Assembly: GCA_963714095.1 (NCBI GenBank)
Contig: OY970230.1
Location: forward strand, 198,206 to 262,205
DNA: 64,000 nt
Reading direction: 5' to 3'
DNA from: Candidatus Gottesmanbacteria bacterium
GTDB lineage: Bacteria; Patescibacteriota; Microgenomatia; UBA10105; UBA927
Under the pieces are notes generated by a model. It saw only the letters and a list, made by a program, of their open reading frames with translations, was not told the origin of the DNA and ran no database searches. The stretch's first letter is position 1. Every line of letters begins with the position of its first letter. Positions 15,234 through 56,807 of this stretch are shown here, piece after piece. The position numbers and the translations under genes were made by a program.

Positions 15234-16071
15234 ATATTGTGACCAAATCCTGCTTTCCGAGGATTTTACCGATACTAATTGAAACGGTCGCCTTAACCGT
15301 CAACATAAATTTTAACACAGATACCTCCTGCGGTGTTTTGTGCTTCCGATAAAAATACAGAAGCCCGCGGAATATATTTGCCACTGGCGCCCGCTTATTG
15401 CCGCTGGAAGCGGCACCGGTATGAATAAAGCGCGCGTCAGGAGTAAAAAAGACGGAATATCCTTTTCGAGCCGCACGATAGAGAAATTCTATCTCATCCA
15501 TATACATAAATATCCCCTGATCGAATAACCCCACATCATAAAAAGAGTCCCTAGTGCCGAGTAAACATGCTCCTGACACCCAACCAACACGCCTCGTATG
15601 GTCCGGCGAATACCGGGTTATCGATATCTTATCTCCGCGGCAAAACAACATGAGAAATATATACCAAAGGGAAAACTCGGGCCCGCAGGACGGCTGAAGC
15701 GATCCATCCTCGTTGTAGAGTTTTCCTCCGACGAAAGATTTAGGATGTGCCAGAGCAAATTCATATAATTTTTCAAAAGCACCATTGAGCGCATCGATAT
15801 CGGAATTGAGCATAAGAACATAGGTCCCCTTCGCAATATGAAGACCCATGTTATTGGCGGTACCATAACCTACATTTTCCTTATTGAGTATTTTTATTAC
15901 CTGAGGAAATTGTGTATTCAACATCGCAACAGAACCGTCACGGGACGCATTATCGACAACAATGATTTCATATGTCAACTTGGAATGTTTAAGAGTCTCA
16001 ACGATTGACCGCAGACACCGCCCCGTCAAGTGTTTAGTGTTAAAACTGGGGATAATAATTGATAGATCCAT
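15202..16071 (-). CDS. Glycosyltransferase family 2
   Basis: MDLSIIIPSFNT...EIIVVDNASRDGS. Confidence 0.8.
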   Translation of the reverse strand: MDLSIIIPSFNTKHLTGRCLRSIVETLKHSKLTYEIIVVDNASRDGSVAMLNTQFPQVIKILNKENVGYGTANNMGLHIAKGTYVLMLNSDIDALNGAFEKLYEFALAHPKSFVGGKLYNEDGSLQPSCGPEFSLWYIFLMLFCRGDKISITRYSPDHTRRVGWVSGACLLGTRDSFYDVGLFDQGIFMYMDEIEFLYRAARKGYSVFFTPDARFIHTGAASSGNKRAPVANIFRGLLYFYRKHKTPQEVSVLKFMLTVKATVSISIGKILGKQDLVTIYEEGLALVNQ

Positions 16072-16074
16072 ACG

Positions 16075-16638
16075 TCACTGGAAGAGCCTCGAAAACTTCA
16101 GCGTATAGTGAAGATTTTTCGACCGGTCTCGGATATGGCTAGCCGGGACCCCCCCGACCACTTCGTAGTCTCCCACGTCTTTGGTGACGACTGCCCCGGA
16201 TGCTATGACTGCCCCGCGTCCTACATGGACACCGGGTAAAATCGTAACTCTCGTTCCTATGACTGCATAATCATCGATAACAACCGGCGCCGCGACTTCG
16301 ACAAAATCCGGGCTATCTATATCATGCTCCATGGTGTAAATGCGTACTTCACCGGCAATCGACACATTATTGCCTATTTTTAATGGGTGTCCATTCGATT
16401 TTAGATAGGTAACGAAATTTTTCATCCGGCCGTCTAAAAATGCATCATTACCTATCACGGTATTGTGCCCTATCGCGACACCCGCCGGCTGATTAAACTC
16501 CGCACGCCAGTGAATAGAAGAGTCCTTTCCGATTTTAATCCGGAAGAGTGTCCGGTAAAGAAATAAACGAATCGTATGACTCGGAATATAGCCGGTAAGC
16601 GTACAAAGATATACCCAAAAATCTATGAGTGCCCTCAT
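16075..16638 (-). CDS. Hexapeptide-repeat (LbH) O-acetyltransferase, WcaF/maltose-acetyltransferase-like
   Basis: Left-handed beta-helix repeats (IGNNVSIAGEVRIY...ILPGVHVGRGAVIASGAVVTKDV). Start set at the internal ATG (16638), which forms an ATGA overlap with the upstream GT4. The longer extension would overlap that gene by 60 nt. Confidence 0.7.
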   Translation of the reverse strand: MRALIDFWVYLCTLTGYIPSHTIRLFLYRTLFRIKIGKDSSIHWRAEFNQPAGVAIGHNTVIGNDAFLDGRMKNFVTYLKSNGHPLKIGNNVSIAGEVRIYTMEHDIDSPDFVEVAAPVVIDDYAVIGTRVTILPGVHVGRGAVIASGAVVTKDVGDYEVVGGVPASHIRDRSKNLHYTLKFSRLFQ

Positions 16639-31629: not shown

Positions 31630-33266
31630 ATCTTTTCTCGTTTCTTAAAAATTTCAATAGTTGATCCATCGATGGGAACGAAAACGTCACGAAAACGATC
31701 GTATCCCAACGATTCTATCACTGTGGCATTAACGCCCCCAGGTACTTTATCCAACACATAATCGGCCTGATGTAACTCCAACTTTTTGGGCAATACGGCA
31801 TCTTTCGGCACTTCTGTGTCCATAACCATTATATCTCGCTGCTCGTACGTCAGAATGGACAGGAACGCATTATCAAGCGGCTCAAAGGCAAACAGCTTAA
31901 CAACGTCTGGCTTTCCGGGCCCTTTCCAATCATTACGAATTGTTGACACCATCACATCCGCATTAACAAATTCTTTATTCGGCGGCCACACTATGGGCGT
32001 CAGATATATACGGCGCGGATGATGAATAAATTCCGGGAGAACAATATCCTTTAAACCCTGTTTCCCCATCGGACCAATTGCCCAAAACGCACCGAAATAA
32101 CTGCAAACGGCAACCACCACGAAACAAACCGTGAAAAATCTTCTGACCGCCGAATGTTGGATGCCCGCAAGGGGTAATACGGCCAAAAAAGCCATATAGG
32201 GATACAAAGGCACGATGAACCGGTCTTCCTTCCACACCGCCATACCAGTAAAAAACAGATACGGCACCGCGACACCCAGAAGGGGCACCCCATATCGTTT
32301 CCATTTCCATAGTGCAATAAGCACACCGACCGCAAACGGAATAAAAATCCAAACCGTATTCTGGGACATAATGTTGAAATAATACATGACGGATCTTGTT
32401 GATAACGTATTTGCCATATCGGGGCTGCGGTATTGTGCCACCCACTCTGCTCCGTACGTCTGGTTGTTCTTAACGTATACGTCAAAAAAAATGTGGGCGT
32501 TGGGAATGTAATATGCAAAAATCGGTACAACTACTCCGATAATCAAAAATAAGACAATGTTAACGATAATGTTCTTTCTGACTTTCTTTTCCCTCACAGC
32601 CTGCCCGACAGACATAATAAATACCGCCAGCGCCGGCCCCAACACAAATACCGGTCCAACCCAACGCGTCAGTGATGCCAGTGCCAGAAAAACTGCCGCA
32701 ACGAGAGTTTCTTTTGTTTTTACGAAACTATTTGTTTTGAGAAGAAATACGACCGACCATATACAGAACGTGCTCACCGCTGTTTCCGTATATGTAAAAT
32801 GTGAATAAAACAATACGTTTCCTAAACTTGCAAATACTATTGCGACAAGAAGTGATTTTTTTTGAGTAAAATACGTTCTGGCTATTACATACGTCCCGAT
32901 AATCGCCGCAAGGTAAAAAAGTCCGTTCAGAAGCAATGCCATCTTGTACGTATACGCTGTTCCGAAAATCAGTAATAATAGTGCTATAACAATACTGAAT
33001 ACCGGCTGCCGGTATCCGCTCGCCGCAAGAATACTCCCCCACGAAACTGACAATGGATGACGGAATTGATCATACAAATTCACTGCCAGAGAAAGATATT
33101 GATGTTCGTCCCATTGGGGATATTGATGAGATCTATAGATATAAAAAGCAAATGAAAGATAAACAAAAACAAGAAGACTTATACTTATCAGACTAAAAAG
33201 TTTATGGTGCGATTGAAGCTGACCCTTGTTGTTTTTTTGTAGCTCTCTTTCATAAAATAACCTCAT
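31626..33266 (-). CDS. Polytopic membrane protein, candidate GT-C glycosyltransferase (PMT/ArnT-like)
   Basis: HQYPQWDEHQYLSLAVNLYDQF is a DE-type motif after TM1. Start placed at the second Met to leave a divergent promoter region. The longest ORF would start at 33356. Confidence 0.5.
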   Translation of the reverse strand: MRLFYERELQKNNKGQLQSHHKLFSLISISLLVFVYLSFAFYIYRSHQYPQWDEHQYLSLAVNLYDQFRHPLSVSWGSILAASGYRQPVFSIVIALLLLIFGTAYTYKMALLLNGLFYLAAIIGTYVIARTYFTQKKSLLVAIVFASLGNVLFYSHFTYTETAVSTFCIWSVVFLLKTNSFVKTKETLVAAVFLALASLTRWVGPVFVLGPALAVFIMSVGQAVREKKVRKNIIVNIVLFLIIGVVVPIFAYYIPNAHIFFDVYVKNNQTYGAEWVAQYRSPDMANTLSTRSVMYYFNIMSQNTVWIFIPFAVGVLIALWKWKRYGVPLLGVAVPYLFFTGMAVWKEDRFIVPLYPYMAFLAVLPLAGIQHSAVRRFFTVCFVVVAVCSYFGAFWAIGPMGKQGLKDIVLPEFIHHPRRIYLTPIVWPPNKEFVNADVMVSTIRNDWKGPGKPDVVKLFAFEPLDNAFLSILTYEQRDIMVMDTEVPKDAVLPKKLELHQADYVLDKVPGGVNATVIESLGYDRFRDVFVPIDGSTIEIFKKREKI

Positions 33267-44500: not shown

Positions 44501-45010
44501 ATGAATCGTTCAGGTATTACTTTTGTCTTATTATTCATTCTATTACTGTCCCTTTGCACAACCGTACATGCCACGTCATGCCAAACGATACCAATGGAGC
44601 AAAAAATGTATCTTAAAATTATGGATCTTCGTGATAGGGCAATGATCTTTTTTCTCATGGACCCGCTCAAGAAAATTTCATATAGGCAAAAACGGGCGGA
44701 TGAACTCTATCAACAGGCTTCCCAAACTACCAATCCCTCGCTCACATATGCGGAAGCACTTCGGGCGGAAGATTCAATAACGCAACTTGTGAGTGATATT
44801 CGGTCATTACCAAATACCGAAAAAGTTGATATCGTTAGTTTAGAACAGTCAATGCGGCAGCATCAGCAAATTATTTCTTCAATGAAAACTAATTGTGATT
44901 GGAGCCTGATTAACCAGTTTATTCAAAAAAACAGATTTATTGCAAGACAACTCTATTTTGAACGATTACCGACTGATAAAAACCAGCAGTTATTTAAGGA
45001 AATCCGATAA
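44501..45010 (+). CDS. Secreted protein of unknown function (169 aa)
   Basis: Clear signal peptide (ITFVLLFILLLSLCTTVHA). Plus-strand, inside the AT-rich segment. Confidence 0.45.
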   Translation: MNRSGITFVLLFILLLSLCTTVHATSCQTIPMEQKMYLKIMDLRDRAMIFFLMDPLKKISYRQKRADELYQQASQTTNPSLTYAEALRAEDSITQLVSDIRSLPNTEKVDIVSLEQSMRQHQQIISSMKTNCDWSLINQFIQKNRFIARQLYFERLPTDKNQQLFKEIR

Positions 45011-46979
45011 CACGAATAGAAATATCTTTCCATTGACATGTGCCGAGATTCTGTTGAAATATCCGGATACCCTGAAGTTCCTCTCCTGCAAATTGTTCTA
45101 CTGCGCGTGAATCGGGATAGACATTTAGTTCACCGGCAAAATCCGCCGGTTGTTCAGAAAAACGATACCACGTAGTGCCGTCCGAGGAACCAAAAATATA
45201 CGCACTTGCGATAGGGTACGCACATTCGGGCTTAACAAAGTTAAACTCAATTCTTTTCACCCTGTTTTGCTTTTCCATACGCAATTCCAACAGATCAGAC
45301 GCCTTTTCCGTCACCTCAAACTTCTCATTTCTTTCATGGGTCATATCTACGCCGTGCGCAAGATGCAACGGGTCGTTTTTCCATATATACAGAAGCGGAA
45401 CACCATCAATCTGAACCGTATAAACCGGAGTGAGCATATTACGCAGAAAACGCATCCGGAAAAAATCATTGACGTTCAAACCCGGATATGTCAATTCCAT
45501 TACATATTCTCCTTGTTGCGCATAGAGGTCGGAATTCGTACCCACGAGGACTAAATCGTTCCGAAAATAGACCGTTGGAACCGCCGAAAAAATTGCGGTA
45601 CCGAGAGCTATCTTTGATCCGAGTTCGGCATGAGCATTAATCCAAAGAGCTCCCTGTTTATATGCATTTCCATACGTATTATTTGCGCCATCCAAACCAT
45701 ATTTCATGGCGCCGGGTAATCCTCCGATGAGTGCGTTATAATACACGTTTTCGTTCGGATGTAATTGAACCATTGTATAGATAATCGGTATATATCCCGA
45801 AATCGCAATCAGAATAATGATCTGCCGTATCGCCCGCCTTTTTTGCAATCGCATAACATGTTCAACTGCTACTCCACAAAGGAGTGATAAGGGGATCATA
45901 TACTCCATAATTTGACGCAGGCTGCCGCCATATAAATACTCGAGGGGAATTGTTGCCCGACCTACTGTAACAAAAATCCAAAGTAACCAAAGAAAAACCG
46001 CGCTGCTTTTACCGAAAGCATATTTCCAGCCAATAACACTCCCCGTCAAAAAAAACAGAAGCGTCGGAATTGGCATCGACGTGCATAACACTACTATGGT
46101 ATTCCAGTCTGAACAATGCACGAACCAGGGAATCGTACCAAAATAATATCCGCAGCTATTTGCGGCATTGGATACTCCCAAATAATACTGAATTACCTGG
46201 AATGTCTTCTGAATCGGCGATGACCACAATGCCGGATACGATATGAAAAACATCCCATATGCAATAATCGGAATAACGATACAGGAGGTAATAACTATCC
46301 GCCGGAGCGGTTTTTTCTCCCACCACCTCAGGGATATAAACCACGGAATGAGAATAAATACAGAAAATACTATATTGAACTTGGTCCCGAGGGATAATCC
46401 GAAAAAAATTGCCGAAACGAAAACCGGCCAATATTTTTTGTATTCAACGGCGAACCATAGAAAAAATAGCGCACCTGTATAATATGAAGCAACCAACGGA
46501 TCCTTAATATTAAAATGCTGTTCGGCAAACAACAGCGGCAACGTGATTAAGGAACACACCGAAAAAAAAGACGCTACAGGACCAAAAACCAGATATGACC
46601 AGCATCCGACTAGGACGACCATGAAGAGAGTCATAAGCAAAACATACACTTCATAGCTTTCAATATCTCCGACTAATCCAAATTTACCCCACAGAATTCT
46701 GTTTGTTGCCGCCATCAAAATGTCAGAAAGCGGCGGGTGACCAATAGTCATTTTCGTCGTCCATGCCCAATCTAACGGACTATTCTGGTAATAACTTAAC
46801 CTTTTGGATTTGAGATCAGGCTTGTCAGTTTTACCAGTTTCAAAAAATCGTAAATAGATATTTCCCCGGACCAAATGCTGATACGTGTCCCAATTTACAC
46901 CGTAATCGTAGATGGTTTTAAACGATAATACGGAAAAAACCGCGATAAGGAAGAGTGTCGGAAATATTCGCCATTTCAT
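44994..46979 (-). CDS. Polytopic membrane protein with a C-terminal extracytoplasmic domain, candidate GT-C-like
   Basis: GVNWDTYQHLVRGNIYL motif after TM1 and more than 12 TM segments. Start placed at the ATG that forms an ATGA overlap with the upstream stop. The longest ORF runs to 46997. Confidence 0.45.
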   Translation of the reverse strand: MKWRIFPTLFLIAVFSVLSFKTIYDYGVNWDTYQHLVRGNIYLRFFETGKTDKPDLKSKRLSYYQNSPLDWAWTTKMTIGHPPLSDILMAATNRILWGKFGLVGDIESYEVYVLLMTLFMVVLVGCWSYLVFGPVASFFSVCSLITLPLLFAEQHFNIKDPLVASYYTGALFFLWFAVEYKKYWPVFVSAIFFGLSLGTKFNIVFSVFILIPWFISLRWWEKKPLRRIVITSCIVIPIIAYGMFFISYPALWSSPIQKTFQVIQYYLGVSNAANSCGYYFGTIPWFVHCSDWNTIVVLCTSMPIPTLLFFLTGSVIGWKYAFGKSSAVFLWLLWIFVTVGRATIPLEYLYGGSLRQIMEYMIPLSLLCGVAVEHVMRLQKRRAIRQIIILIAISGYIPIIYTMVQLHPNENVYYNALIGGLPGAMKYGLDGANNTYGNAYKQGALWINAHAELGSKIALGTAIFSAVPTVYFRNDLVLVGTNSDLYAQQGEYVMELTYPGLNVNDFFRMRFLRNMLTPVYTVQIDGVPLLYIWKNDPLHLAHGVDMTHERNEKFEVTEKASDLLELRMEKQNRVKRIEFNFVKPECAYPIASAYIFGSSDGTTWYRFSEQPADFAGELNVYPDSRAVEQFAGEELQGIRIFQQNLGTCQWKDISIRVIGFP

Positions 46980-47680
46980 ATTTTTTGCATACAGCAATAA
47001 ATATTGGTAAACCCCCGTTCCTTTTGATATTCCTCGTCCAATTTTCGCTCAAAAAATCGGGCGAAAAATGGGGATCTGCGGAAAATCCATTTTGATATAT
47101 AAAGATTTAAAATCCAGGCTGTTTCCCACCATGCACCGGCACATTGGATTTTAACAATCTTCATGCCTGACCCCCGGACATACGCGATAATCGAACCTAC
47201 CGTATAATGCCTGTGGCCAGTTAACCAAAACGCCGGATCCAATAACGTGCTAATAATAAACCGGTGCGGCGTAGAAATATAACACGCACCACCCCGTTTC
47301 AGTACGCGGGAAATCTCCCGAAACATTATATATTCCGTTCCTTTTGGAATGTGCTCGAGAACTTCCCACGATACGACTGTATCAAACGAACGTTTTGGAA
47401 AAGGTATTACTGTGGCGCTGCCGACGATAAAATGAATTTTTTTGTCATAAATAGACCGCTTCGCCGTACGAAAATCTTCCTCAGTCAACTCAGTTCCCAC
47501 GATAGATCGGACGTTATTTTTTTTCGCAAATACCTCAAACCACCCATACCCGCAGCCGATATCGAGAACTTTTTTATATGTTATATCACCGATCCGTACA
47601 AAAGAAGCCGTAAAACGCAGACGTTCATGAAGCGGAGCATATGGCGATACCTTGGTGATATTTTTCATACAGGGCGACAA
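46976..47680 (-). CDS. Class I SAM-dependent methyltransferase
   Basis: VLDIGCGYGWF (motif I)...VVSWEVLEHIP. The start codon at 47680 is TTG. An in-frame ATG lies at 47668. Confidence 0.7.
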   Translation of the reverse strand: MSPCMKNITKVSPYAPLHERLRFTASFVRIGDITYKKVLDIGCGYGWFEVFAKKNNVRSIVGTELTEEDFRTAKRSIYDKKIHFIVGSATVIPFPKRSFDTVVSWEVLEHIPKGTEYIMFREISRVLKRGGACYISTPHRFIISTLLDPAFWLTGHRHYTVGSIIAYVRGSGMKIVKIQCAGAWWETAWILNLYISKWIFRRSPFFARFFERKLDEEYQKERGFTNIYCCMQKI

Positions 47681-47720
47681 ATAACTCCTTGCTTATACCT
47701 ATGATTCGCACAAAATACCC

Positions 47721-49031
47721 TTATCGCAGGTTTTGTAATCGGAAAAATGATTCCAATGTTTTTTCTATATATCCGATCATTTGAACTGTAATACCGGGCC
47801 AGACTCCTATCCAAAATCCGTAATTCATAACCGTGTCTGAATTTTTCATAGATCCGGAAATACGTATATCTTTTCTACCGATATAGGCGGGGTGACGAAG
47901 AAGGTTTCCGGCAAACAGATTTCGGGTCCCGATGTTATGTTCCTCCAAATACTTGACCAATTCCAGCCGTGTAAATGGCGCAGTATCTTTGACAACCAGC
48001 ATAAATCCGAACCAGCAGGGGTCAGAGACCGGATCCCACTCGGGCAAAATAAAATATTTCTCATATTTTTTGAAAAAATCATATAGAAGGGTGAAATTTC
48101 TCTTACGCTTTTTTATAAATACGGGAAGTTTTTTTAACTGGGCAACGCCGATAGCCGCCTGAAAATCAGTCAGCTTGAGATTGTAACCGATTTGAGAATA
48201 AATATATTTATGATCGTATCCTTTCGGCAGTTCCCCAAGCTGCCAGCCAAAACGCCGTTTGCATGTATTGTCCTTCCCCGTATCGCACCAGCAATCCCTC
48301 CCCCAATCACGGAACTGACGCAGAGCCTTATGAATCAGAGGATTATTCGTCACAATCGCCCCGCCTTCGCCCATGGTAATCTGATGTGCCGGATAAAAAG
48401 AAAAGGTCCCGATATGGCCAAACGTGCTTAACTTTTTGCCCTGATATGTCGATCCGAGCCCGTCGCAGCAATCCTCAATAAACCATAGATTATACTTCAC
48501 TACGAGCCGCATAATGCCCTCTATGGGCAAAGGATTCCCGAGGGTATGTGCAAGCATGATAACCCTTGTTTTCTTCGTTATAGCCTGTTCTATAGCCTCA
48601 CACGTAGGATTTCTTGTCCCCAAATCAACATCTACGAATACCGGCACGCATTTATTCTGAATAATAGGATTAACGGTCGTCGGAAAGGCACACGCTGCGG
48701 CGATGATTTCATCTCCCGGCTTGAGTGCTTTTTTGCCGAATACGGAAGACGTGAGGGCGGTCAATGCCAGCAAGTTGGCGGAAGATCCGGAATTTACCAG
48801 TGTTACGTATCGTATGCCGAGATACGAAGCAAAATTCTTTTCAAACTTTTTGGCAAACTCCCCCTCCGTCCACCACCCGTCCAGCACTGCTTCCGCACCA
48901 CTGAGCAATTCCTGTTGGTCAAACACTTTCCCGGAAACCGGTACTGAAGACTTTCCGGGTTTAAATGGACGGGTGGAATATTTCTGACGTGCGTATGAAC
49001 GAATTAGCCCTGCAATATTTGCTGGCATCAT
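47721..49031 (-). CDS. ddhC: CDP-6-deoxy-D-xylo-4-hexulose 3-dehydrase (E1, DdhC/RfbH-like), PMP-dependent with a [2Fe-2S] motif
   Basis: DegT-family fold. The active-site position has His (SFYPAHQITMGEGG) instead of Lys. A Cys cluster (DCWCDTGKDNTCKRRF) matches the E1 iron-sulfur motif. Confidence 0.75.
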   Translation of the reverse strand: MMPANIAGLIRSYARQKYSTRPFKPGKSSVPVSGKVFDQQELLSGAEAVLDGWWTEGEFAKKFEKNFASYLGIRYVTLVNSGSSANLLALTALTSSVFGKKALKPGDEIIAAACAFPTTVNPIIQNKCVPVFVDVDLGTRNPTCEAIEQAITKKTRVIMLAHTLGNPLPIEGIMRLVVKYNLWFIEDCCDGLGSTYQGKKLSTFGHIGTFSFYPAHQITMGEGGAIVTNNPLIHKALRQFRDWGRDCWCDTGKDNTCKRRFGWQLGELPKGYDHKYIYSQIGYNLKLTDFQAAIGVAQLKKLPVFIKKRKRNFTLLYDFFKKYEKYFILPEWDPVSDPCWFGFMLVVKDTAPFTRLELVKYLEEHNIGTRNLFAGNLLRHPAYIGRKDIRISGSMKNSDTVMNYGFWIGVWPGITVQMIGYIEKTLESFFRLQNLR

Positions 49032-49954
49032 ATATTTTTCTTCAAAATCGACTGAATTGTTTCTATAATTTGGTTGACAGTCAAACCGTTGGCCTCTCTC
49101 ATATATTCCTGCAAACCCATACCTTTCGTAAACCTATCGGGTACACCGATTCGCCTGAAAGGAATTGCATTACCGTGTTCCGCGAGTATTTCCGATACTG
49201 CGCTTCCTAATCCTCCGATTACACTGTGTTCCTCCAAAGTAAATATCGCTTTCGTGTATTTTGCGGAATCCAAAATCAATTGCTGATCTATGGGTTTTAT
49301 TGTATGCATACTGATCAACCGTCCCTGCATTCCCTGAATGGCAAGTTTCTCAACCACATCTATACCGCGTGCGACAAGCGTTGATGTTGCAATAAGACAA
49401 TAGTCCTTTCCTTTCCTCAGGATAATACCCTTACCAATTTTAAAATGCGGCGGCTTATCATACAAACGAGGTTCTCCGGCTTTCCCGATCCGCAGATAGA
49501 CGGGACCTTTGTGCATCAAGGCGGCCCGCGTCGCTAGCTCCGCCTCTATCGGATCTGCCGGGCAGACTATTGTCATGTTCGGGAGGGTTCGCATTATACC
49601 GATATCTTCCAGACTATGATGTGTATGTCCGTAGGGACCGTATGCGAATCCCGCCCCAACACCGACAATTTTAACATTCAAATTTTGATAGCAAATATCA
49701 TTCCTCACCTGTTCAAAATTCCGCATGGTAACAAACGGAATAATAGAATAGATAATAGGAATTTTTCCCTCAAGCGCCATACCCGCCGCGACCCCTGTCA
49801 TGTTCTGCTCGGCAATCCCCATATTAATATATTGCCGGGGCACCTCATGAATATACTTTTCAAAAACGGAATATCCCAAATCTCCTGTAAGCAGGATGAT
49901 CCGTCTATCTTGTTTTGCCAACTGAAGTATCGTTTTCGTAAATGCTATTCTCAT
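49028..49954 (-). CDS. Transketolase, C-terminal (pyrimidine-binding) subunit
   Basis: GIAEQNMTGVAAGMALEG is the transketolase Pyr-domain signature. ATGA overlap with ddhC. Confidence 0.8.
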   Translation of the reverse strand: MRIAFTKTILQLAKQDRRIILLTGDLGYSVFEKYIHEVPRQYINMGIAEQNMTGVAAGMALEGKIPIIYSIIPFVTMRNFEQVRNDICYQNLNVKIVGVGAGFAYGPYGHTHHSLEDIGIMRTLPNMTIVCPADPIEAELATRAALMHKGPVYLRIGKAGEPRLYDKPPHFKIGKGIILRKGKDYCLIATSTLVARGIDVVEKLAIQGMQGRLISMHTIKPIDQQLILDSAKYTKAIFTLEEHSVIGGLGSAVSEILAEHGNAIPFRRIGVPDRFTKGMGLQEYMREANGLTVNQIIETIQSILKKNI

Positions 49955-50784
49955 ACTGCTTCCAAATCCTTTAATGCTTTATCAAACTCCTTTTCCGTCG
50001 GAGCTTTATACTGGGACGAAACTGTGCCTATATACCTGGCTACACCCCCAAGACCTTTTATCGTATGAGCGATAATTACCGATGGCTTTCCGTTTCGGAA
50101 TGGAAGAGTTCTAAACGTTTGGATAACTTTCTTAATATTATGCCCGTCTACCTCCGCGACTTCCCAATCAAAACTTTGCCATTTTTCTTTCAACGGTTCC
50201 AGATCTAACACATCTTTGGTGAATCCGAAGCCCTGCAGCTTATTATAATCGACGATAGCAATAAGGTTATCCAGCTTATGATATCCGGCAAACAATATAG
50301 CTTCCCATGTAGAACCTTCATCACATTCACCGTCGGACAGTACAGCGAATACTCGATAAGCCTTTTTATCCTGTTTCCCTACCCACGCCATTCCTGCAGC
50401 CATGGGTAACCCGTGGCCCAGAGAACCGGACGAAATTTCAATACCCGCGATACCTCGTACCGAATGTCCCGGCAATAATCCGCCGTCATGCTCATAGCCT
50501 TTCAACAGTTTTTTATCAAAGAAGCCACGTTCTGCAAGTACGGCATACAGAGCTTTAGCGTCATGCGCTTTGCTGAATACCAGCCTGTCCCGACGTGGAT
50601 TCACCGGATCGCCGGGATATACCTTCATTATCCGAAAATACAACGCTACCAAAATTTCCACACACGATAGCGCGCCGCCCGTATGTGCACTCTGAGCCAG
50701 ATAGCTCATCGTCAGAATATCCCGACGGATATCTCTTGCAATAGTTTCTAACGTTTTTCTTTTACTACGGGTAATTGTTCTCAT
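49951..50784 (-). CDS. Transketolase, N-terminal (ThDP-binding) subunit
   Basis: SAHTGGALSCVEIL...GSLGHGL...SDGECDEG is the ThDP/PP-domain motif. First ATG is used. The track ORF starts at TTG (50796). Confidence 0.8.
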   Translation of the reverse strand: MRTITRSKRKTLETIARDIRRDILTMSYLAQSAHTGGALSCVEILVALYFRIMKVYPGDPVNPRRDRLVFSKAHDAKALYAVLAERGFFDKKLLKGYEHDGGLLPGHSVRGIAGIEISSGSLGHGLPMAAGMAWVGKQDKKAYRVFAVLSDGECDEGSTWEAILFAGYHKLDNLIAIVDYNKLQGFGFTKDVLDLEPLKEKWQSFDWEVAEVDGHNIKKVIQTFRTLPFRNGKPSVIIAHTIKGLGGVARYIGTVSSQYKAPTEKEFDKALKDLEAV

Positions 50785-50921
50785 CTTCAGTATCAATATA
50801 ATAATTATTTATCGTTTTACGCATGATCAACCTCACTATACTTTTTTAAACCCTGCATTCGTTTCAGAAACATTTTCCTCTTCGTTCTATCAGGGGATGC
50901 ACGCTTCTCTGCTTTTCTTCG

Positions 50922-52034
50922 TTACCGATATCGAATAAGTTTTGTGAGCTTCTCACAAATGAATGCAACGTCCGATTCTGTTATATCGGCGGCAGACGGC
51001 AGGTTGAATCCATATTTCTCTACTTTTGCGGCTTCAGGATTAGGGAATCGGCGCTCGTACATGGGAAATCCGCTCATCCGGGGAAACGCGACCCTTCCAT
51101 GAATATTCCATCGTTCCAATTTACTTACCAAATCCTTATTGGATATTTTTTTTGAAGTGAGTAAAGCGGAGGGATATGCGTAATTACTGCGGCATCCGGG
51201 CCTTTCTTTAATGAGTTTTAATTCATGTACATCTTTCAGCCGTGAGTAATACCAGCCGAATATTCTCCGTTTTTTTGCAACGAGTTCTTCTATGCGCTCG
51301 ACCTGAGCAAGCGCCAGGGCTGCTGTCACATTTGCCATTTGATATTCATATCCCAGTGAATCACACCAAAAATTGAATTTCCTATTCGTTCTGCCCATGT
51401 TACTGAAAAGAATAGCTTTATCAAGGTATGCCTTATTATTTGTAATAAACATCCCGCCTTCACCAGAAACGGCGATTTTTGCCCCATGAAATGAATAGGC
51501 GCCGACGTCACCGAACGTGCCCACTTTCTTTCCTTTATATAAGGAGCCGAGCGAAGGAGCCGCATCTTCAATAACTTTAAGTTTATACTTTCCGGCAATT
51601 CGCATTATTTCATCCATTTCCGCCGGATGCCCGAAGGTATGAACGAGCATAATACCTTTCGTCTTTTTTGTAATTGCGCGTTCTACGGCTTTGGGATCAA
51701 TACACCATGTATCAGGATCAATATCAACAAATACAGGAGTTGCACCCGTATATGCGATCACGTGAGCGGTTGCGGCCCAACTGGTATCCACACATATTAC
51801 CTCGTCACCTTTTTGAAAACCGCAGACCAAACATGCAAGATGGAGTGAATGTGTTGCACAAAAACCGGCTAAAGAATACTTCGCACCGGTATAGTCACAC
51901 ATACGTTTTTCTAGTTTCTTTATATGCTTGTCAAATGTTGAGTACCACCCTGTCTTAACAGCATCGACAACATAATCAACTTCTTTTTGAGTCATCGATG
52001 GACCTGCAAAACTAATCCTTTTATATTTTTTCAT
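50922..52034 (-). CDS. DegT/DnrJ/EryC1-family PLP-dependent sugar aminotransferase
   Basis: Catalytic Lys is retained (YSFHGAKIAVSGEGG). Confidence 0.75.
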   Translation of the reverse strand: MKKYKRISFAGPSMTQKEVDYVVDAVKTGWYSTFDKHIKKLEKRMCDYTGAKYSLAGFCATHSLHLACLVCGFQKGDEVICVDTSWAATAHVIAYTGATPVFVDIDPDTWCIDPKAVERAITKKTKGIMLVHTFGHPAEMDEIMRIAGKYKLKVIEDAAPSLGSLYKGKKVGTFGDVGAYSFHGAKIAVSGEGGMFITNNKAYLDKAILFSNMGRTNRKFNFWCDSLGYEYQMANVTAALALAQVERIEELVAKKRRIFGWYYSRLKDVHELKLIKERPGCRSNYAYPSALLTSKKISNKDLVSKLERWNIHGRVAFPRMSGFPMYERRFPNPEAAKVEKYGFNLPSAADITESDVAFICEKLTKLIRYR

Positions 52035-52719
52035 ACGGTAATTTCATAACTACACTATATCGTTTTATTGTTCCTTTATAACCTTTGGGTGCATTTTGCC
52101 ATTCAATTCTATCAGATTTAACAATCCTGATCATGGGCGTCCGTTTCACTTCAGTAAAATCAAGCTTTCGGTAAAGGCGAATGGCTCTTATATTATCAGA
52201 CGTTGTAGACAGCATATACGTTTTAATTCCAAATTCAACCCTGCCCCAACATATCATATGACGTATCGCATCTTCTATAATTCCGGGGTATAAATTCACA
52301 CCACGCACAATATTATCTATTTCGCAGATACGTTTTTGAAAATTAAAACGATACAAGCCGATATGACCGATGTACCGGTTTTTTACTTTTATCATAAATA
52401 AAATCCTGTCGGGTTCATTCACAACTTTATCGCGCAACCATTTTTCGGTTCCTTCCAAGGTAACCGGGAATATTGCAGGAAACCATTGCTCATGCTTTTT
52501 TCTCCATAACGCGAGTAGTTTAATAATTTTTTTATCAGTTCTCTGGTTGTCCGTAACGAGAACTAAATAATAACGAATTTTTCTAAAAATTATTTTAATT
52601 TGTAATTTTTTTCCGTGTTTAAGCAATGAAATTTTGTCTTTCACCAAACTGCTGATATCTCGCTCCGTTAATTTCATAATCAACCTAATGCTCTGTCTTT
52701 TATTCTTTCGATATATCAA
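52021..52719 (-). CDS. GNAT-family N-acetyltransferase (putative amino-sugar N-acetyltransferase)
   Basis: C-terminal GNAT-like block (IGHIGLYRF...YMLSTTSDNIRAIRLYRKLDF). Weak. Confidence 0.45.
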   Translation of the reverse strand: MIYRKNKRQSIRLIMKLTERDISSLVKDKISLLKHGKKLQIKIIFRKIRYYLVLVTDNQRTDKKIIKLLALWRKKHEQWFPAIFPVTLEGTEKWLRDKVVNEPDRILFMIKVKNRYIGHIGLYRFNFQKRICEIDNIVRGVNLYPGIIEDAIRHMICWGRVEFGIKTYMLSTTSDNIRAIRLYRKLDFTEVKRTPMIRIVKSDRIEWQNAPKGYKGTIKRYSVVMKLPYEKI

Positions 52720-52723
52720 CTAA

Positions 52724-53686
52724 TTATTTCAAGATAGAATTATACCAGCGGCGGATTAAAGGAAGTGTGTTTTTAATCGAATATGTAGGTCTCCATCCCA
52801 GATTGATAATCTTCCCTGCATTCAAATGCTGGTACGGAATTTCGTTCTTCGCCGAGTTTTCTATAACATACGGTATTTTTCTTTTTAGTATCCTTTCTGT
52901 TTGCCTGATGAGAGCTATCACTGAACACGAGTCGCTGGAGGATAAATTAAATGCCTCCCCATTAGTTTTATCTCTATGTTCAAGAAGGAACAAATAGCCG
53001 GATACTACATCTTCAACGTAAATATAGTCCCGGACATATGAACCGTCACTTCGAATAACCAATTTTTCTTTCGTGACAACTGCTTTCATTATTCCCGGAA
53101 TAATCCGTGAAAAATTCAGATCACCTTCTCCGTAAATATTTCCTGCCCGTGTAACGACGATAGGCAAATGGTATGTTTTTGCGTATGCGTGTGCGAGAAG
53201 ATCCGTTGCCGATTTAGAAACCTCATATGGATGGTCGCCTCTCAAAGGATCCGTCTCGATATAGGGTTTCCTGCTTTTTCCGTAGCTTTTATCAGACGAT
53301 GCAACAATGACTCCTTTCACATGAGTAAAAAGTCGTGCCGCATCGAGAATATAGGTGGTACCCATGATATTAGTTTCAATTGTTTCCACGGGATTTTCGT
53401 AGGCAGTAGGCACTATTGCCTGAGCGGCTAAGTGGAAAATATAGTCAATTTCATATTTTGACACGATATCAAAAACCCGATCTTTATCTTTAAGGTCACA
53501 TGAAACAAGAACGGTATTTTTTGATAACCGTTCGGTCATGAAATATGAACGGGGGTCTAATGATCGAAACGGCACAAATACCGTTGCATGCCTCCCTAGT
53601 AAGGCTTTCACAAGATGACTTCCAACAAACCCCGTTCCGCCTGTGACCAGAATGTTCTTTCCTGTTAATCTTTCCATATTTTCCAT
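52724..53686 (-). CDS. ddhB: CDP-glucose 4,6-dehydratase-like (DdhB/RfbG-like) extended SDR
   Basis: LTGKNILVTGGTGFVGSHL...YENPVETIETNIMGTTYILDAAR, compared with the RfbG pattern EPVETYSTNVMGT. Confidence 0.7.
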   Translation of the reverse strand: MENMERLTGKNILVTGGTGFVGSHLVKALLGRHATVFVPFRSLDPRSYFMTERLSKNTVLVSCDLKDKDRVFDIVSKYEIDYIFHLAAQAIVPTAYENPVETIETNIMGTTYILDAARLFTHVKGVIVASSDKSYGKSRKPYIETDPLRGDHPYEVSKSATDLLAHAYAKTYHLPIVVTRAGNIYGEGDLNFSRIIPGIMKAVVTKEKLVIRSDGSYVRDYIYVEDVVSGYLFLLEHRDKTNGEAFNLSSSDSCSVIALIRQTERILKRKIPYVIENSAKNEIPYQHLNAGKIINLGWRPTYSIKNTLPLIRRWYNSILK

Positions 53687-54441
53687 TCAGGATTCCGTTT
53701 CCATAATGTATTAAGACGTTCCAAATCCGCATATGTATCCATCGATTGCCAAAAACCTTTATGGACAAAAAGAGATAGCTCCCGGTCTTTAACAAGCCTT
53801 TTTAGTGCCTCATGTTCATATTCAGCCGGCCGCAGATAATTAAAAAACTTTTTATCAAATACCATAAATCCGCCGTTTACCCAATCCTGTAAAACAGGTT
53901 TTTCGACAAACTCCGTTACCCTGTGTTTAACATTTTGCCGGACCATTCCGTATTTACTTTTCGGATACACGCCAGTTATGGTACCGATTGTTTTTTGTTT
54001 TCTGTGAAACTGAACTAATTGCCGGATATTGATATTAGACACACCGTCCCCGTACGTAACCATAAAATCTTTATCAGTTTTCGGGATATAATCTTTTACA
54101 CGTATTATTCTTTCACCCGGAAGTGTCCCCTCTCCCGTATCTACAAAGGTAATTTTGAAATTATCGGCGGCAGATGGGTTTTTATGAAAAATCGCTGAGC
54201 CGGATTTTGTGGATAACGTAAAATTTTGTGAAAAATATTTTTGATTTAAAAAATACTCCTTAATCATATCCCCCTTATACCCGAGGGCAATGATAAAATC
54301 ATTAAACCCGTAGTACGCATACATTTTCATGATATGCCACAGGATTGGTTTATTGCCGACCAACACCATGGGTTTTGGTTTAAACTCTGTTTCCTCCTTT
54401 AATCTGTATCCTATACCGCCACATAAAATAATCGTCTTCAT
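53665..54441 (-). CDS. ddhA: Glucose-1-phosphate cytidylyltransferase
   Basis: MKTIILCGGIGYRLKEETEFKPKPMVLVGNKPILWHIMKMYAYYGFNDFIIALGYKG closely follows the RfbF/DdhA pattern (257-aa class). Confidence 0.85.
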   Translation of the reverse strand: MKTIILCGGIGYRLKEETEFKPKPMVLVGNKPILWHIMKMYAYYGFNDFIIALGYKGDMIKEYFLNQKYFSQNFTLSTKSGSAIFHKNPSAADNFKITFVDTGEGTLPGERIIRVKDYIPKTDKDFMVTYGDGVSNINIRQLVQFHRKQKTIGTITGVYPKSKYGMVRQNVKHRVTEFVEKPVLQDWVNGGFMVFDKKFFNYLRPAEYEHEALKRLVKDRELSLFVHKGFWQSMDTYADLERLNTLWKRNPEWKIWKD

Positions 54442-54453
54442 ATTTAGTGGCCT

Positions 54454-54482
54454 ATTATAACATTTATTGTCTTTTCGAAAAG
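54454..54482 (-). promoter_or_regulatory. Candidate internal promoter upstream of ddhA, with a perfect 12-bp palindrome
   Basis: The minus strand reads cttttcgaaaag (perfect palindrome, 54471..54482), then 16 nt, then TATAAT (54459..54454), 12 nt before the ddhA ATG. Confidence 0.2.
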
Positions 54483-54498
54483 TTTTACCGGGGCAGTT

Positions 54499-55608
54499 TT
54501 AGATGTGTATTGCTTTATTTAATAAATGGAGACTTTGTTTAACGGCATCTGTCCAACGCAGGTTGGCTACCCACTTTCTGGCGTTTATTTGATATTCTTT
54601 ATAGTGTAATTTGTCTCTATATAATTTCACCGCCTCCCGTGCCATTTCTCGGGGCGAGCAGCTTTCGATAACCATCCCTGTTTTTCCATGAATGACAACG
54701 TCCCTCAATCCGGGAACGTTATAAACAATTGCAGGTGTGCCTACGGACGCAGCCTCAAGAACAACAAGTCCCCACCCCTCTTTCACAGATGCGTGAAGAA
54801 GAAGGTGTGCCCGTGCCATACGGTTATATTTTTCTTTTTCAGAAACGTTTCCAAAAAAGATTACCCGTTCTTTTATACCGTATTCCGTTATCATTCTTTT
54901 CAATTCATCGATATACTCAGGCTCACCGCCTCCGATAATCCATAACACTGCATCCGTCTGTTCACGCACAATAAACGAAAACGCTTTAATAACCTCCTCG
55001 ATACCCTTCATACGGACGACACGGGATACAAACAGGTATGTAGGATGTATTTCTTTATTTTTCGAGGTTATATGAAACCGGCCGTGTACGGTAATCGGAC
55101 AGGGAATATTTACGCATTGTGATCGGGGAATACCGCGGGATACCAGTTCATCAATCGTCGACGGCGCATCCGTCCAAAAATAACAGTGACGATACAATCG
55201 GAAACACCATCGTTCCAGAAATTTTCCGATGACGTTTTTGGGAAACGAAAACATATAATCCCATATTTCTCCTGCTATCTCATGAATAAAAACGACGACC
55301 GGTTTCCCAGTGAAGAGCGTAGAAAAAAAAGGAAATCCGTGCACCTCGTCGACAATGATATCAAAAGCATTCCTGTGAGTAAGCAAGTAAAATGGGACGT
55401 ACAGATATATTGTGAGTGAGCCCGCCCGCCGGATAAAACGGACACTCTGAACCGTTTCTTCTTTTTTAGCACCGGAATATGCGGCAGTGAGCCATGTCAC
55501 ATCATTCCCCGCTGCCACCCACCCCTTTGCATGCTCAAAGGTCACTACTTCGGCCCCTCCGGATTTCGGATGACGAACATCACGCCAATTAAGTATTAAT
55601 ATGCGCAT
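54499..55608 (-). CDS. Glycosyltransferase family 4
   Basis: HASVKEGWGLVVLEAASVGTPAIV is the C-domain motif. Confidence 0.75.
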   Translation of the reverse strand: MRILILNWRDVRHPKSGGAEVVTFEHAKGWVAAGNDVTWLTAAYSGAKKEETVQSVRFIRRAGSLTIYLYVPFYLLTHRNAFDIIVDEVHGFPFFSTLFTGKPVVVFIHEIAGEIWDYMFSFPKNVIGKFLERWCFRLYRHCYFWTDAPSTIDELVSRGIPRSQCVNIPCPITVHGRFHITSKNKEIHPTYLFVSRVVRMKGIEEVIKAFSFIVREQTDAVLWIIGGGEPEYIDELKRMITEYGIKERVIFFGNVSEKEKYNRMARAHLLLHASVKEGWGLVVLEAASVGTPAIVYNVPGLRDVVIHGKTGMVIESCSPREMAREAVKLYRDKLHYKEYQINARKWVANLRWTDAVKQSLHLLNKAIHI

Positions 55609-55616
55609 AATTCTTC

Positions 55617-56807
55617 CTATTTATGTCCGGCAGTAAATACCTTTATGATTGTTTGGATTTCTCCAGTCGTCAGTTCCGGATTATTGCCAAAATATAATCC
55701 TTGTTCATGTATGAGCTTCACGTTGACGCATTCGCGGAAATTACCCTTCACGTATTTGGTAAAAAACGGTTGTTCTGTCATATCGCCGCCGACAACCGGC
55801 CTGATTTCAATCCTGTTACCGCAGGCCTTTACTAACGAATCCCGGATTGCGGTTGATTTGCATATAACGGGCACGGCAAAATTTGAAATTGTATCCATGT
55901 GATCATATCGTATAGGATAGTAATCCGGCGACTGATAAATTCTTCCGGCAATTTTTTTAAAATTATTCTGCCGTTTCTTAATTATTTCAGGGAGAAATTT
56001 AATTTGAATTTGTCCTAGATACCCGGTAATTTCCGTCGGACGGAAATTATACCCTAAATCATAGAACGTATACCGCCCATAAAACGACGGGTTTGCAAGA
56101 AATTTTCTCCGGGCCGTCTGTTCCGGAACTGACAGATTTCTATCCCAACCGTGAGCCCGCACCATGATGAGCATACTCGCGAGATCACTGTTATCTGTAC
56201 AAACCGCACCTCCTTCGACTGTTGACATGTGGTGTCCAACGTAAAACGAAAATGTACCTGCCTCTCCGAAATTACCGAGTTTTTTGGCATGATAAACAGA
56301 TCCCAGAGATTCACAGTTGTCTTCTACGAACAGCATGCCGCGTTTATTGCAGAGATCCATAACTTTATCAATATCGTCACATAATCCGAGAAGGTTTGTA
56401 AGGAGAAGTGCTTTTAGTTTATACCTAGCTAATGTGTTTAACAGGGTTCTACTGGATACATTCAGGGTGTCTAGTTCCACGTCAACTGGTACCGGCTTCA
56501 GACCCAACTGAATAAGCGGCATAACGTTGGTAGACCATGTGACGGCGGAAAATCCGACCATGTCTCCTTTGTGAATTTTACCTAGATTAAGAAGGGCCTG
56601 AATAAGCGCTAAATTTGCGGAACTGCCGCTGTTGAGCAATACACAGTATTTTTTCCCCTGCCAGAAAGCAAATTGTTTCTCAAATGCTTCGCACTCCTTA
56701 CCGAAACTTAACTGTTTGGCGACCAATAAAAATTGGATCAGCTTCCGTTTTGTTTCGTTTTCTTTATAAAATGTCGATTTTATAAGTGTAATCATGTTAA
56801 TGAACAA
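55617..56807 (-). CDS. DegT-family sugar 3-dehydratase-like enzyme (ColD/E1-type active-site His, no Fe-S motif)
   Basis: The NSGSSANLALI block is paralogous to ddhC. The active-site position is His (FSFYVGHHMSTVEGG). The Cys cluster is absent. Confidence 0.65.
   Translation of the reverse strand: MFINMITLIKSTFYKENETKRKLIQFLLVAKQLSFGKECEAFEKQFAFWQGKKYCVLLNSGSSANLALIQALLNLGKIHKGDMVGFSAVTWSTNVMPLIQLGLKPVPVDVELDTLNVSSRTLLNTLARYKLKALLLTNLLGLCDDIDKVMDLCNKRGMLFVEDNCESLGSVYHAKKLGNFGEAGTFSFYVGHHMSTVEGGAVCTDNSDLASMLIMVRAHGWDRNLSVPEQTARRKFLANPSFYGRYTFYDLGYNFRPTEITGYLGQIQIKFLPEIIKKRQNNFKKIAGRIYQSPDYYPIRYDHMDTISNFAVPVICKSTAIRDSLVKACGNRIEIRPVVGGDMTEQPFFTKYVKGNFRECVNVKLIHEQGLYFGNNPELTTGEIQTIIKVFTAGHK

Follow-up and report, generated by a model that had tools for sequence, protein, structure and literature searches.

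A split transketolase with a rebuilt acceptor site in a deoxysugar operon of Candidatus Gottesmanbacteria: a candidate sugar-nucleotide C-branching enzyme

Thiamine diphosphate (ThDP)-dependent C-branching of sugar nucleotides has been proven experimentally for enzymes of the YerE type, and pyruvate dehydrogenase (PDH)-like (alpha-KADH2) enzymes are known to branch the sugars of secondary metabolites (PMC12247030). YerE adds a two-carbon unit at the C-4 carbonyl of CDP-3,6-dideoxy-4-keto-glucose, yielding a tertiary alcohol (PMC12247030); ketone-accepting transketolases, sought as a way of making tertiary alcohols, are listed as unproven in the same review. Transfer of a hydroxyacetyl group onto a keto sugar has been proposed for the split transketolases encoded in the miharamycin and amipurimycin clusters, along with 13 Streptomyces homologues, all of them from streptomycetes and with the function described as unproven (Krug et al. 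2024, via PMC12247030). In the biosynthesis of the azinomycin azabicycle, the split transketolase AziC5/AziC6 lengthens its substrate by two carbons, the resulting ketone is aminated by an aminotransferase, and an N-acetyltransferase takes part in the pathway (PMC9570651). The split transketolase of Carboxydothermus hydrogenoformans (ChTK) forms a heterotetramer, as demonstrated by co-expression and gel filtration (PMC7661550). In bacteria of the candidate phyla radiation (CPR), housekeeping transketolases are encoded by split genes too, and in a complete Microgenomates genome the transketolase genes share an operon with a class I aldolase (PMC7143001). Here, we describe a split transketolase gene pair, TK-N and TK-C, located inside a deoxysugar operon on a 64,000-nucleotide stretch of a Candidatus Gottesmanbacteria contig (OY970230.1, positions 198,206 to 262,205), the whole of which is referred to below as the window. 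The GlyRS encoded in the window belongs to a 90% cluster that bears the name Candidatus Gottesmanbacteria.

The pair is very probably an enzyme of a sugar pathway and not the housekeeping transketolase of this bacterium. On the evidence of gene context and active-site residues, it is probably a dedicated ThDP carboligase that would add a two-carbon ketol to a CDP-3,6-dideoxy-4-ketohexose, implementing the logic of YerE on a transketolase scaffold. The two genes are the following:

49951..50784, minus strand: TK-N, the subunit that binds the ThDP diphosphate (PP); ATG start, 277 amino acids (aa); Transketolase_N, 4.6e-32
49028..49954, minus strand: TK-C, the Pyr+C subunit; 308 aa; Transket_pyr, 2.3e-35, and Transketolase_C, 1e-23

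The first-pass annotation had placed a split transketolase at 49028-50784, with the two genes joined by an ATGA overlap, flanked by an E1 dehydrase and a sugar aminotransferase, and set among deoxysugar rather than pentose-phosphate genes, and all of this was borne out. Two minus-strand open reading frames (ORFs) match these coordinates exactly, the Pfam halves of transketolase reside on separate, adjacent and co-oriented genes, and the TK-N stop and the TK-C start share the ATGA overlap, as do, likewise, the TK-C stop and the start (49031) of the E1 gene. A DegT-family gene lies upstream of the pair and a bona fide E1/RfbH gene downstream, and no pentose-phosphate gene was found among the window genes named by Pfam or NCBIfam. 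An alternative TTG start 12 nt upstream would lengthen TK-N to 281 aa. All three transketolase domains (PP, Pyr and C) are represented, and D151, N181 and E49 of the window proteins correspond to D155, N185 and E411 of Escherichia coli transketolase (EcTK). The closest solved structure for both subunits is the split transketolase of C. hydrogenoformans (6YAK/6YAJ; 200 bits for TK-N and 244 bits for TK-C), followed by human transketolase and DXS, and a protein identical to TK-N (P0001) is encoded on a public contig of 1,088,247 bp. Given the coordinates, the Pfam domains and the structure matches, the observation is real and far beyond chance, and the predicted product of TK-N and TK-C is most likely a ThDP-dependent split transketolase of the alpha2beta2 type. 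Phosphonopyruvate and sulfopyruvate decarboxylases, split ThDP enzymes that are common in glycan clusters, were considered and rejected; they belong to the decarboxylase superfamily, whereas only transketolase-family domains match the window pair.

For comparison of the active sites, both window subunits were aligned with E. coli TktA (MG1655), the human and C. hydrogenoformans transketolases and one canonical split transketolase from CPR bacteria. TK-N keeps EcTK residues H26, H66, H100, D155 and N185, and TK-C keeps R358, S385, E411 and H473, so that four of the five catalytic and donor-side histidines (H26, H66, H100 and H473) are in place. The fifth, H261, is replaced by Gln258 of TK-N (with Tyr259 next to it), and three of the five canonical acceptor-site residues are replaced in TK-C, namely H461 by Gly100, D469 by Tyr108 and R520 by Lys158, leaving R358 and S385. 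From this pattern of kept and replaced positions, the cofactor and donor side of the enzyme appears intact and the acceptor/phosphate side rebuilt. H461, D469 and R520 are the positions that are mutated when E. coli transketolase is engineered for non-phosphorylated or bulkier acceptors. The changes are shared by the closest relatives: the Gln at position 261 (motif SSQY) and an SDG motif are invariant in the 120 nearest TK-N relatives (63-73% identical; those with names are Levy-, Gottesman- and Woesebacteria), and Gly at the H461 position and Tyr at the D469 position are kept throughout the CPR clade of TK-C. In the contrast set retrieved with canonical CPR-type queries, His461 and Asp469 were present in 117 of 120 TK-C sequences and His261 in all 120 TK-N sequences; all three residues are also kept in the E. 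coli, human and C. hydrogenoformans transketolases. The change from GDG to SDG was dropped as a discriminator, the canonical CPR transketolase carrying SDG too.

These residues bear directly on the possibility that the pair is a housekeeping pentose-phosphate transketolase that came to lie in a glycan island by chance or that supplies sedoheptulose-7-phosphate or other sugar phosphates to heptose genes. Housekeeping transketolases of CPR bacteria are split genes as well (PMC7143001), R358 and S385 are retained, and heptose-pathway genes together with a TAL_FSA gene occur within 8 kb of the pair in three loci (L002, L004 and L006). Against such a role, 117-120 of 120 canonical CPR-type sequences retain the three residues that are replaced in the window enzyme, H461, D469 and H261. 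Moreover, a distinct, canonical-type split pair was found in one Woesebacteria metagenome-assembled genome (MAG; L088:5127-6972) and on one 747-kb metagenomic contig, in both cases in the housekeeping neighborhood GatB-DnaE-TKN-TKC-Fpg-(toxin/antitoxin)-SecA-SerRS. Taken with the neighbor tally and the tree described below, this makes the housekeeping explanation highly improbable. As an aside, the GatB-DnaE-TK-Fpg-SecA neighborhood might help to locate the housekeeping copy when other CPR genomes are searched. The heptose-pathway-like genes in related CPR bacteria encode a SIS isomerase, a GHMP kinase and a HAD-fused NTP-transferase and lie within a few kb of the cassette of transketolase and E1 (L002:634-3499; L004:1-774 and 15784-16449; L006:15020-16828), one locus also containing the TAL_FSA aldolase.

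The donor side of the active site is pertinent to another alternative, namely that, in the manner of DXS or YerE, the enzyme decarboxylates pyruvate and transfers an acetyl equivalent (as hydroxyethyl-ThDP) to the same acceptor, producing a 4-C-acetyl or 1-hydroxyethyl branch of the yersiniose type. TK-C matches DXS as well as it matches human transketolase (124 vs 119 bits), EcTK H261, which contacts the C1 hydroxyl of the donor, is Gln in the clade of the window enzyme, and pyruvate is the substrate of YerE and of the PDH-like branching enzymes (PMC12247030). Nevertheless, H100 is kept, along with H26, H66 and H473, whereas this position is consistently Phe in DXS, and the H100F and H100L mutations raise the use of pyruvate (PMC7661550); furthermore, in most of the wider family, position 261 is His (HY in 68 of 88). 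Acetyl transfer is therefore considered unlikely, and the donor in the carboligase reading is taken to be a hydroxylated ketol.

A profile scan with a 16-sequence TK-C alignment, run against one genome per species, detected at least 593 relatives, among which the best 80 loci were examined, so that the counts below are not a census. The family defined by the replacement of His461 with Gly spans at least 593 species genomes and more than 10 phyla, archaea included. The bacteria among the best 80 loci belong to Patescibacteria, Acidobacteriota, Chloroflexota, Planctomycetota, Verrucomicrobiota, Elusimicrobiota, Paenibacillus, Clostridium, Geobacter and Oryzomonas, and the archaea to Methanoperedens, Methanosarcinales and Pacearchaeota; matches on Streptomyces plasmids were found at ~40-42% identity. 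TK-N is located directly 5' of TK-C in 75 of the 80 loci, and Gly occupies the H461 position in 88 of the 90 TK-C-like ORFs of the family loci. Where flanks were adequate (n = 50), an RfbF-like gene was present in 19 loci, an iron-sulfur E1 in 12 and a DegT aminotransferase immediately downstream in 16. Genes of the ddhA/B/C type, which make CDP-3,6-dideoxy-4-keto-glucose, accompany the pair in the window and again in 16 of the 80 loci. The two kinds of DegT neighbor differ in their active-site residue: the dehydratase His was found in 26 of 26 E1/ColD-like neighbors, and the aminotransferase Lys in 37 of 42 aminotransferase-like ones. A Pfam tally of 135 operonic neighbors (two genes on either side of the pair) yielded DegT (33), Epimerase/4,6-dehydratase (24), Polysacc_synt_2 (16), GT2 (16), methyltransferases (13), Bac_transf (11) and GNAT (5); the top 25 families among these 135 neighbors include no pentose-phosphate enzyme, which again argues against a housekeeping function.

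The cassette found in the window recurs in distant organisms. Three other CPR genomes contain an NTP-transferase, a 4,6-dehydratase, an optional short-chain dehydrogenase/reductase (SDR) or methyltransferase, TK-N, TK-C and an E1 of 433-436 aa, and the combination of NTP-transferase, 4,6-dehydratase, TK-N, TK-C and E1 was identified in Levyibacteriota, other CPR bacteria, archaea, Geobacter, Oryzomonas, Paenibacillus, Acidobacteriota and Planctomycetota. The Paenibacillus chibensis module, with the order E1-RfbF-RfbG-SDR-TKN-TKC-TylF-type O-methyltransferase, adjoins a nonulosonic-acid gene set; by analogy, this is the gene logic of yersiniose (ddhA/B/C, yerE and yerF), with the transketolase in the place of YerE. 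In two loci (L011 and L018), a GNAT gene is located directly 5' of TK-N. A literature search, which was not exhaustive, retrieved no account of this family in cell-surface glycan clusters, CPR bacteria or archaea, nor of a coupling to E1.

The groups of sequences in a neighbor-joining tree of TK-C correspond at once to gene context and to the residue found at the D469 position, as follows:

Tyr: the CPR clade; RfbF with E1 or a ColD-like 3-dehydratase
Ala: Paenibacillus, Geobacter, Oryzomonas and Acidobacteriota; RfbF with E1
Gln: Planctomycetota; RfbF without E1
Leu, often with Arg-Gly-Gly: several phyla; an aminotransferase downstream

Naive Fisher tests gave p = 0.001 for the association of Ala or Tyr with E1 and p = 3e-5 for that of Leu with a downstream aminotransferase; these p-values ignore shared ancestry and thus indicate a pattern without implying that the events are independent. 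Among the 150 nearest clusters (at 50% identity) in a library of 1.8 billion proteins, only 12 have His at the H461 position, and the 469 position is hypervariable among the others, as would be anticipated for a residue that determines specificity within a family undergoing radiation. The tree interleaves archaea, Firmicutes, Deltaproteobacteria and other distant bacterial phyla, a pattern that fits a mobile accessory cassette and not a core enzyme inherited vertically, and is a further point against the housekeeping explanation.

The transketolase is also physically tied to sugar-tailoring enzymes through gene fusions. A finished plasmid of Paenibacillus cellulosilyticus KACC 14175 (NZ_CP054609.1; L090:7097-9004) encodes a 635-aa fusion of a nucleotide-sugar SDR with Transketolase_N, within the string rfbF-rfbG-C-methyltransferase-[SDR::TKN]-TKC-TylF-type methyltransferase-glycosyltransferase, where rfbF and rfbG are the names assigned by NCBI. 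The NCBI name of the fusion protein is just 'SDR family NAD(P)-dependent oxidoreductase', leaving its transketolase half invisible. Fusions of GNAT with TK-N are listed for P0090 and P0111 (485 aa, on short metagenomic contigs) and are confirmed by Pfam for P0090.

The GNAT fusions are compatible with a different role, akin to that of AziC5/AziC6, in which a non-nucleotide aldehyde would be extended by two carbons, then aminated by the aminotransferase and acetylated by the GNAT enzyme, to provide a small amino-polyol or acyl unit that is later put on a sugar or glycan. In the azinomycin pathway, the split transketolase step is followed by an aminotransferase (PMC9570651), and in 23 of the 80 loci an aminotransferase gene lies immediately downstream of the pair. 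In the clade of the window enzyme, however, the tightest partner of the pair is E1, joined by the ATGA overlap, and not the aminotransferase; a 3-dehydratase homologue stands beside nearly every Tyr-type transketolase, the fusion partner of TK-N in Paenibacillus is an SDR of the nucleotide-sugar type, and the operon contains no gene that would supply the aldehyde substrate. Such an aldehyde extension is accordingly judged improbable.

A second type of cassette lacks the CDP-sugar genes and consists of TK-N, TK-C and, immediately downstream, a DegT aminotransferase (with Lys), often with a methyltransferase, and a ~650-aa protein of the Polysacc_synt_2 type. Examples are found in Acidobacteriota (L029:9060-15255, L039, L041 and L058), Chloroflexota (L023 and L055) and Parcubacteria (L073); in their transketolases, the D469 position is occupied by Leu and the signature begins with Arg-Gly-Gly, and this cassette probably serves a different acceptor sugar. 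In a Levybacteria contig (CAWBPM010000003.1; L015:10945-12692), a second TK-N/TK-C pair directly follows the first, diverges strongly at the catalytic positions, with H66 replaced by Trp, H100 by Cys and Asn at the H461 position, and may be a further neofunctionalized or an inactive paralogue. Four loci labeled 'uncultured Gammaproteobacteria bacterium' (L010, L011, L012 and L014) encode TK-C proteins 61-66% identical to that of the window, with the CPR-type signature and cassette. Their position in the TK-C tree is within the CPR clade, so these bins are probably mislabeled Patescibacteria.

In the window, the order of genes in the direction of transcription is rfbF-rfbG-GNAT-aminotransferase-TK-N-TK-C-E1-methyltransferase, followed by a PMT_2-like membrane protein. 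The neighbors of the pair, with one further DegT-family gene located upstream of this string, are:

55617-56807, minus strand: second protein of the DegT family, 396 aa; Schiff-base Lys replaced by His, without CxCx7C; RfbH model 216 bits, below the cut-off
53665..54441, minus strand: glucose-1-phosphate cytidylyltransferase-like protein (RfbF/DdhA type); NTP_transferase; TIGR02623, 272.8 bits over the full length (cut-off 300)
52724..53686, minus strand: sugar-nucleotide 4,6-dehydratase of the SDR type (RfbG/DdhB type); Epimerase and GDP_Man_Dehyd; overlaps the end of rfbF
52021..52719, minus strand: GNAT acyltransferase; Acetyltransf_3 and Acetyltransf_1; weak similarity to PseH; start codon uncertain
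50922..52034, minus strand: DegT-family pyridoxal phosphate-dependent aminotransferase; PF01041, 2e-98; LegC/PseC-like (NCBIfam); Schiff-base Lys present
47721..49031, minus strand: E1 (RfbH/DdhC/AscC type; CDP-4-keto-6-deoxy-D-glucose 3-dehydrase), 436 aa; NCBIfam RfbH, 650.5 bits (cut-off 423)
46976..47680, minus strand: class I S-adenosylmethionine-dependent methyltransferase, 234 aa; Methyltransf_11, Methyltransf_25 and Methyltransf_23
44994..46997, minus strand: large multi-pass membrane protein; weak PF13231 PMT_2 match (E = 2e-4) under the gathering score; overlaps the end of the methyltransferase gene

The 436-aa E1 aligns with the Yersinia pseudotuberculosis E1 (3BCX) over residues 5-432 with 521 bits, carries His where the Schiff-base Lys would be, and retains the iron-sulfur Cys...CxCx7C motif; by these features, it is a genuine E1/RfbH. 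Fellow members of the 90% cluster of the RfbF-like protein are named glucose-1-phosphate cytidylyltransferase by JGI, and the top NCBIfam model for the RfbG-like SDR is CDP-glucose 4,6-dehydratase (189.5 bits, under the cut-off of 278). The solved structures nearest to the aminotransferase are a sugar aminotransferase and perosamine synthetases. The GNAT protein is probably an N-acetyltransferase acting on an amino sugar, and the methyltransferase a probable tailoring enzyme. The methyltransferase is a single 234-aa ORF in the window, compared to two pieces (172 aa called) in an independent Logan assembly of this region (L001:6666-7369), a frameshift difference. The PMT_2-like protein, weakly similar to ArnT/PMT-like glycosyltransferases, may transfer the finished sugar, its membership in the transcription unit being uncertain. 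The 396-aa DegT protein is a ColD-like sugar 3-dehydratase, given the His in place of Lys and the absence of the CxCx7C motif; the island therefore encodes, together with E1, two different 3-deoxygenation enzymes ~5 kb apart.

We infer the reaction, its donor, its acceptor and the order of steps from these genes and from the residue patterns, both of which were observed directly. RfbF would make CDP-glucose, and RfbG would oxidize and dehydrate it to CDP-4-keto-6-deoxyglucose, from which E1, along with a cellular reductase, would remove the 3-hydroxyl to give a CDP-3,6-dideoxy-4-ketohexose. The transketolase would load a ketol, in the form of dihydroxyethyl-ThDP, from a ketose phosphate or hydroxypyruvate, and the ThDP-bound unit would be added to the C-4 carbonyl, leaving a tertiary alcohol that bears a 4-C-hydroxyacetyl (glycolyl) branch. 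The ketone of this branch would be tailored, here by the aminotransferase, the GNAT enzyme and the methyltransferase, and in other lineages by an SDR and an O-methyltransferase, and a glycosyltransferase would move the finished sugar onto a surface glycan. Such tailoring would parallel the succession of AziC5/AziC6 and an aminotransferase in azinomycin biosynthesis (PMC9570651) and that of YerE and YerF (PMC12247030). The proposal in the first-pass annotation that the transketolase forms a C-C bond on a 4-keto deoxysugar nucleotide in a YerE-like manner is consistent with the remodeled pocket, the conserved cassette, the sugar-gene context, the covarying residue and the fusions. The acceptor named there, CDP-4-keto-6-deoxyglucose, fares less well: the E1 product, the 3,6-dideoxy-4-keto sugar, is the more likely one.

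Several observations weigh against this reconstruction. A 2025 review states that no ketone-accepting transketolase has been characterized so far (PMC12247030). The retained phosphate contacts R358 and S385 leave phosphosugars possible as substrates, and the replacement of R520 by Lys had to be dropped as a discriminator, Lys being found in 14 of 120 canonical sequences as well. No canonical transketolase could be assigned to the window genome among the 120 matches listed per search (queries P0187 for TK-C and L088 for TK-N, in a set of 5.8 billion proteins), the remainder of the genome lying outside this search. The aminotransferase of the operon resembles 4-aminotransferases, such as perosamine synthetase, and would thus compete for the C-4 keto group, so that two sugars or another order of steps are possible. 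A 137-nt gap separates the aminotransferase gene from TK-N, so that co-transcription with the upstream genes is putative, and a promoter and terminator scan of positions 46500-55000 gave results at the level of chance, which carry no information on the operon boundaries. Unlike the Paenibacillus and Geobacter versions, the window operon has no SDR gene adjoining the transketolase. Finally, no ORF in the window has the plant-type 2Fe-2S or FNR motifs expected of the E3 (AscD/RfbI) partner of E1, a motif-level and hence weak test, and no E3 reductase was seen in the P. chibensis cassette either. E1 homologues, for example SpnQ, work with general cellular reductases.

The operon is part of an extended glycan island. 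The minus strand carries all long ORFs between ~37.8 kb and 64 kb and nearly all of those in the entire window (1-64000), and the GC skew is negative in almost every 2-kb bin; comparable strand asymmetry is known for Microgenomates (PMC7143001). More than 55 kb of the window encode glycosyltransferases, enzymes of sugar modification and multi-pass membrane proteins of very large size (580-997 aa), which is an unusually high fraction for a ~1.09-Mb genome. Those of the remaining window genes that were run through Pfam or NCBIfam were identified as glycosyltransferases, sugar epimerases, dehydratases and sugar transferases, and the other large ORFs read as multi-pass membrane proteins. Between positions 32000 and 44000, the GC content is 0.36-0.40, compared to 0.44-0.49 across most of the window, which hints at a mosaic or horizontally acquired origin of parts of the island.

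More broadly, the split transketolases with the His461-to-Gly replacement could tentatively be viewed as a pan-prokaryotic class of enzymes for the C-branching or chain extension of nucleotide sugars, whose residue at the D469 position would be adapted to whichever sugar the neighboring genes make. If the proposed reaction is correct, the surfaces of Gottesmanbacteria and other CPR bacteria would carry an undescribed 4-C-glycolyl or 4-C-(1-acetamido-2-hydroxyethyl) 3,6-dideoxyhexose, and from the family as a whole, new branched deoxysugars are predicted at the cell surface in CPR bacteria, archaea and common soil phyla. The pentose-phosphate capacity of CPR genomes would then be over-called by reconstructions of metabolism in which any 'transketolase' match counts, and such annotations in reduced genomes need an active-site check before serving as evidence of the pentose-phosphate pathway. 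The family represents natural variation at H461, D469 and R520, the positions targeted in the engineering of E. coli transketolase. The presence of the cassette in the cultivable P. chibensis NBRC 15958, P. cellulosilyticus KACC 14175 and Geobacter sp. OR-1 makes the hypothesis testable. Overall, ThDP-dependent sugar C-branching on a transketolase scaffold coupled to E1 is a partly supported interpretation, for which the comparative evidence is strong.

Comparison with the known systems delineates the position of the window enzyme among them. By fold and architecture, split transketolases stand nearest to it, and it departs from canonical transketolase in the acceptor residues and in context. 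With the split transketolase of C. hydrogenoformans (6YAK/6YAJ) and the canonical split transketolases of CPR bacteria (e.g., L088), it shares the two-gene architecture and the same ThDP-binding residues, but these enzymes keep H261, H461, D469 and R520, and the CPR pair is located in a housekeeping neighborhood. DXS is a ThDP carboligase of the same superfamily with similarly scoring Pyr and C domains; it differs in being a single chain with Phe at EcTK position 100 (PMC7661550) that keeps the Asp and Arg binding glyceraldehyde-3-phosphate, whereas the window enzyme has His100 and lacks the Asp. AziC5/AziC6, compared here by description, is likewise a split transketolase accompanied by an aminotransferase and an N-acetyltransferase, but its acceptor is an aldehyde, N-acetyl-glutamate semialdehyde, rather than the ketone of a sugar nucleotide, and no E1 or CDP-sugar genes are involved.

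By function, YerE is the closest system. In the yersiniose A cluster of Y. pseudotuberculosis (ddhA-ddhB-ddhC-ddhD-yerE-yerF), as in the window, a ThDP enzyme is encoded beside a glucose-1-phosphate cytidylyltransferase, a CDP-glucose 4,6-dehydratase and E1, and in the Paenibacillus and Geobacter cassettes an SDR follows, in the way that YerF does. Yet YerE is a single-chain member of the acetolactate-synthase-like decarboxylase superfamily that uses pyruvate, whereas the window enzyme has a two-chain transketolase fold with the residues for hydroxylated donors kept and no E3 gene seen in the window. The window pair, which matches only Transketolase_N, Transket_pyr and Transketolase_C and none of TPP_enzyme_N, TPP_enzyme_M and TPP_enzyme_C, therefore falls outside the YerE superfamily. 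By fold and proposed chemistry combined, the closest are the split transketolases encoded in the clusters for miharamycin and amipurimycin, compared by description only, which likewise lie outside the pentose-phosphate pathway. As described, these belong to antibiotic clusters of actinomycetes and have an acceptor other than a CDP-3,6-dideoxyhexose, whereas the type represented in the window belongs to the cell-surface glycan clusters of CPR bacteria, other phyla and archaea.

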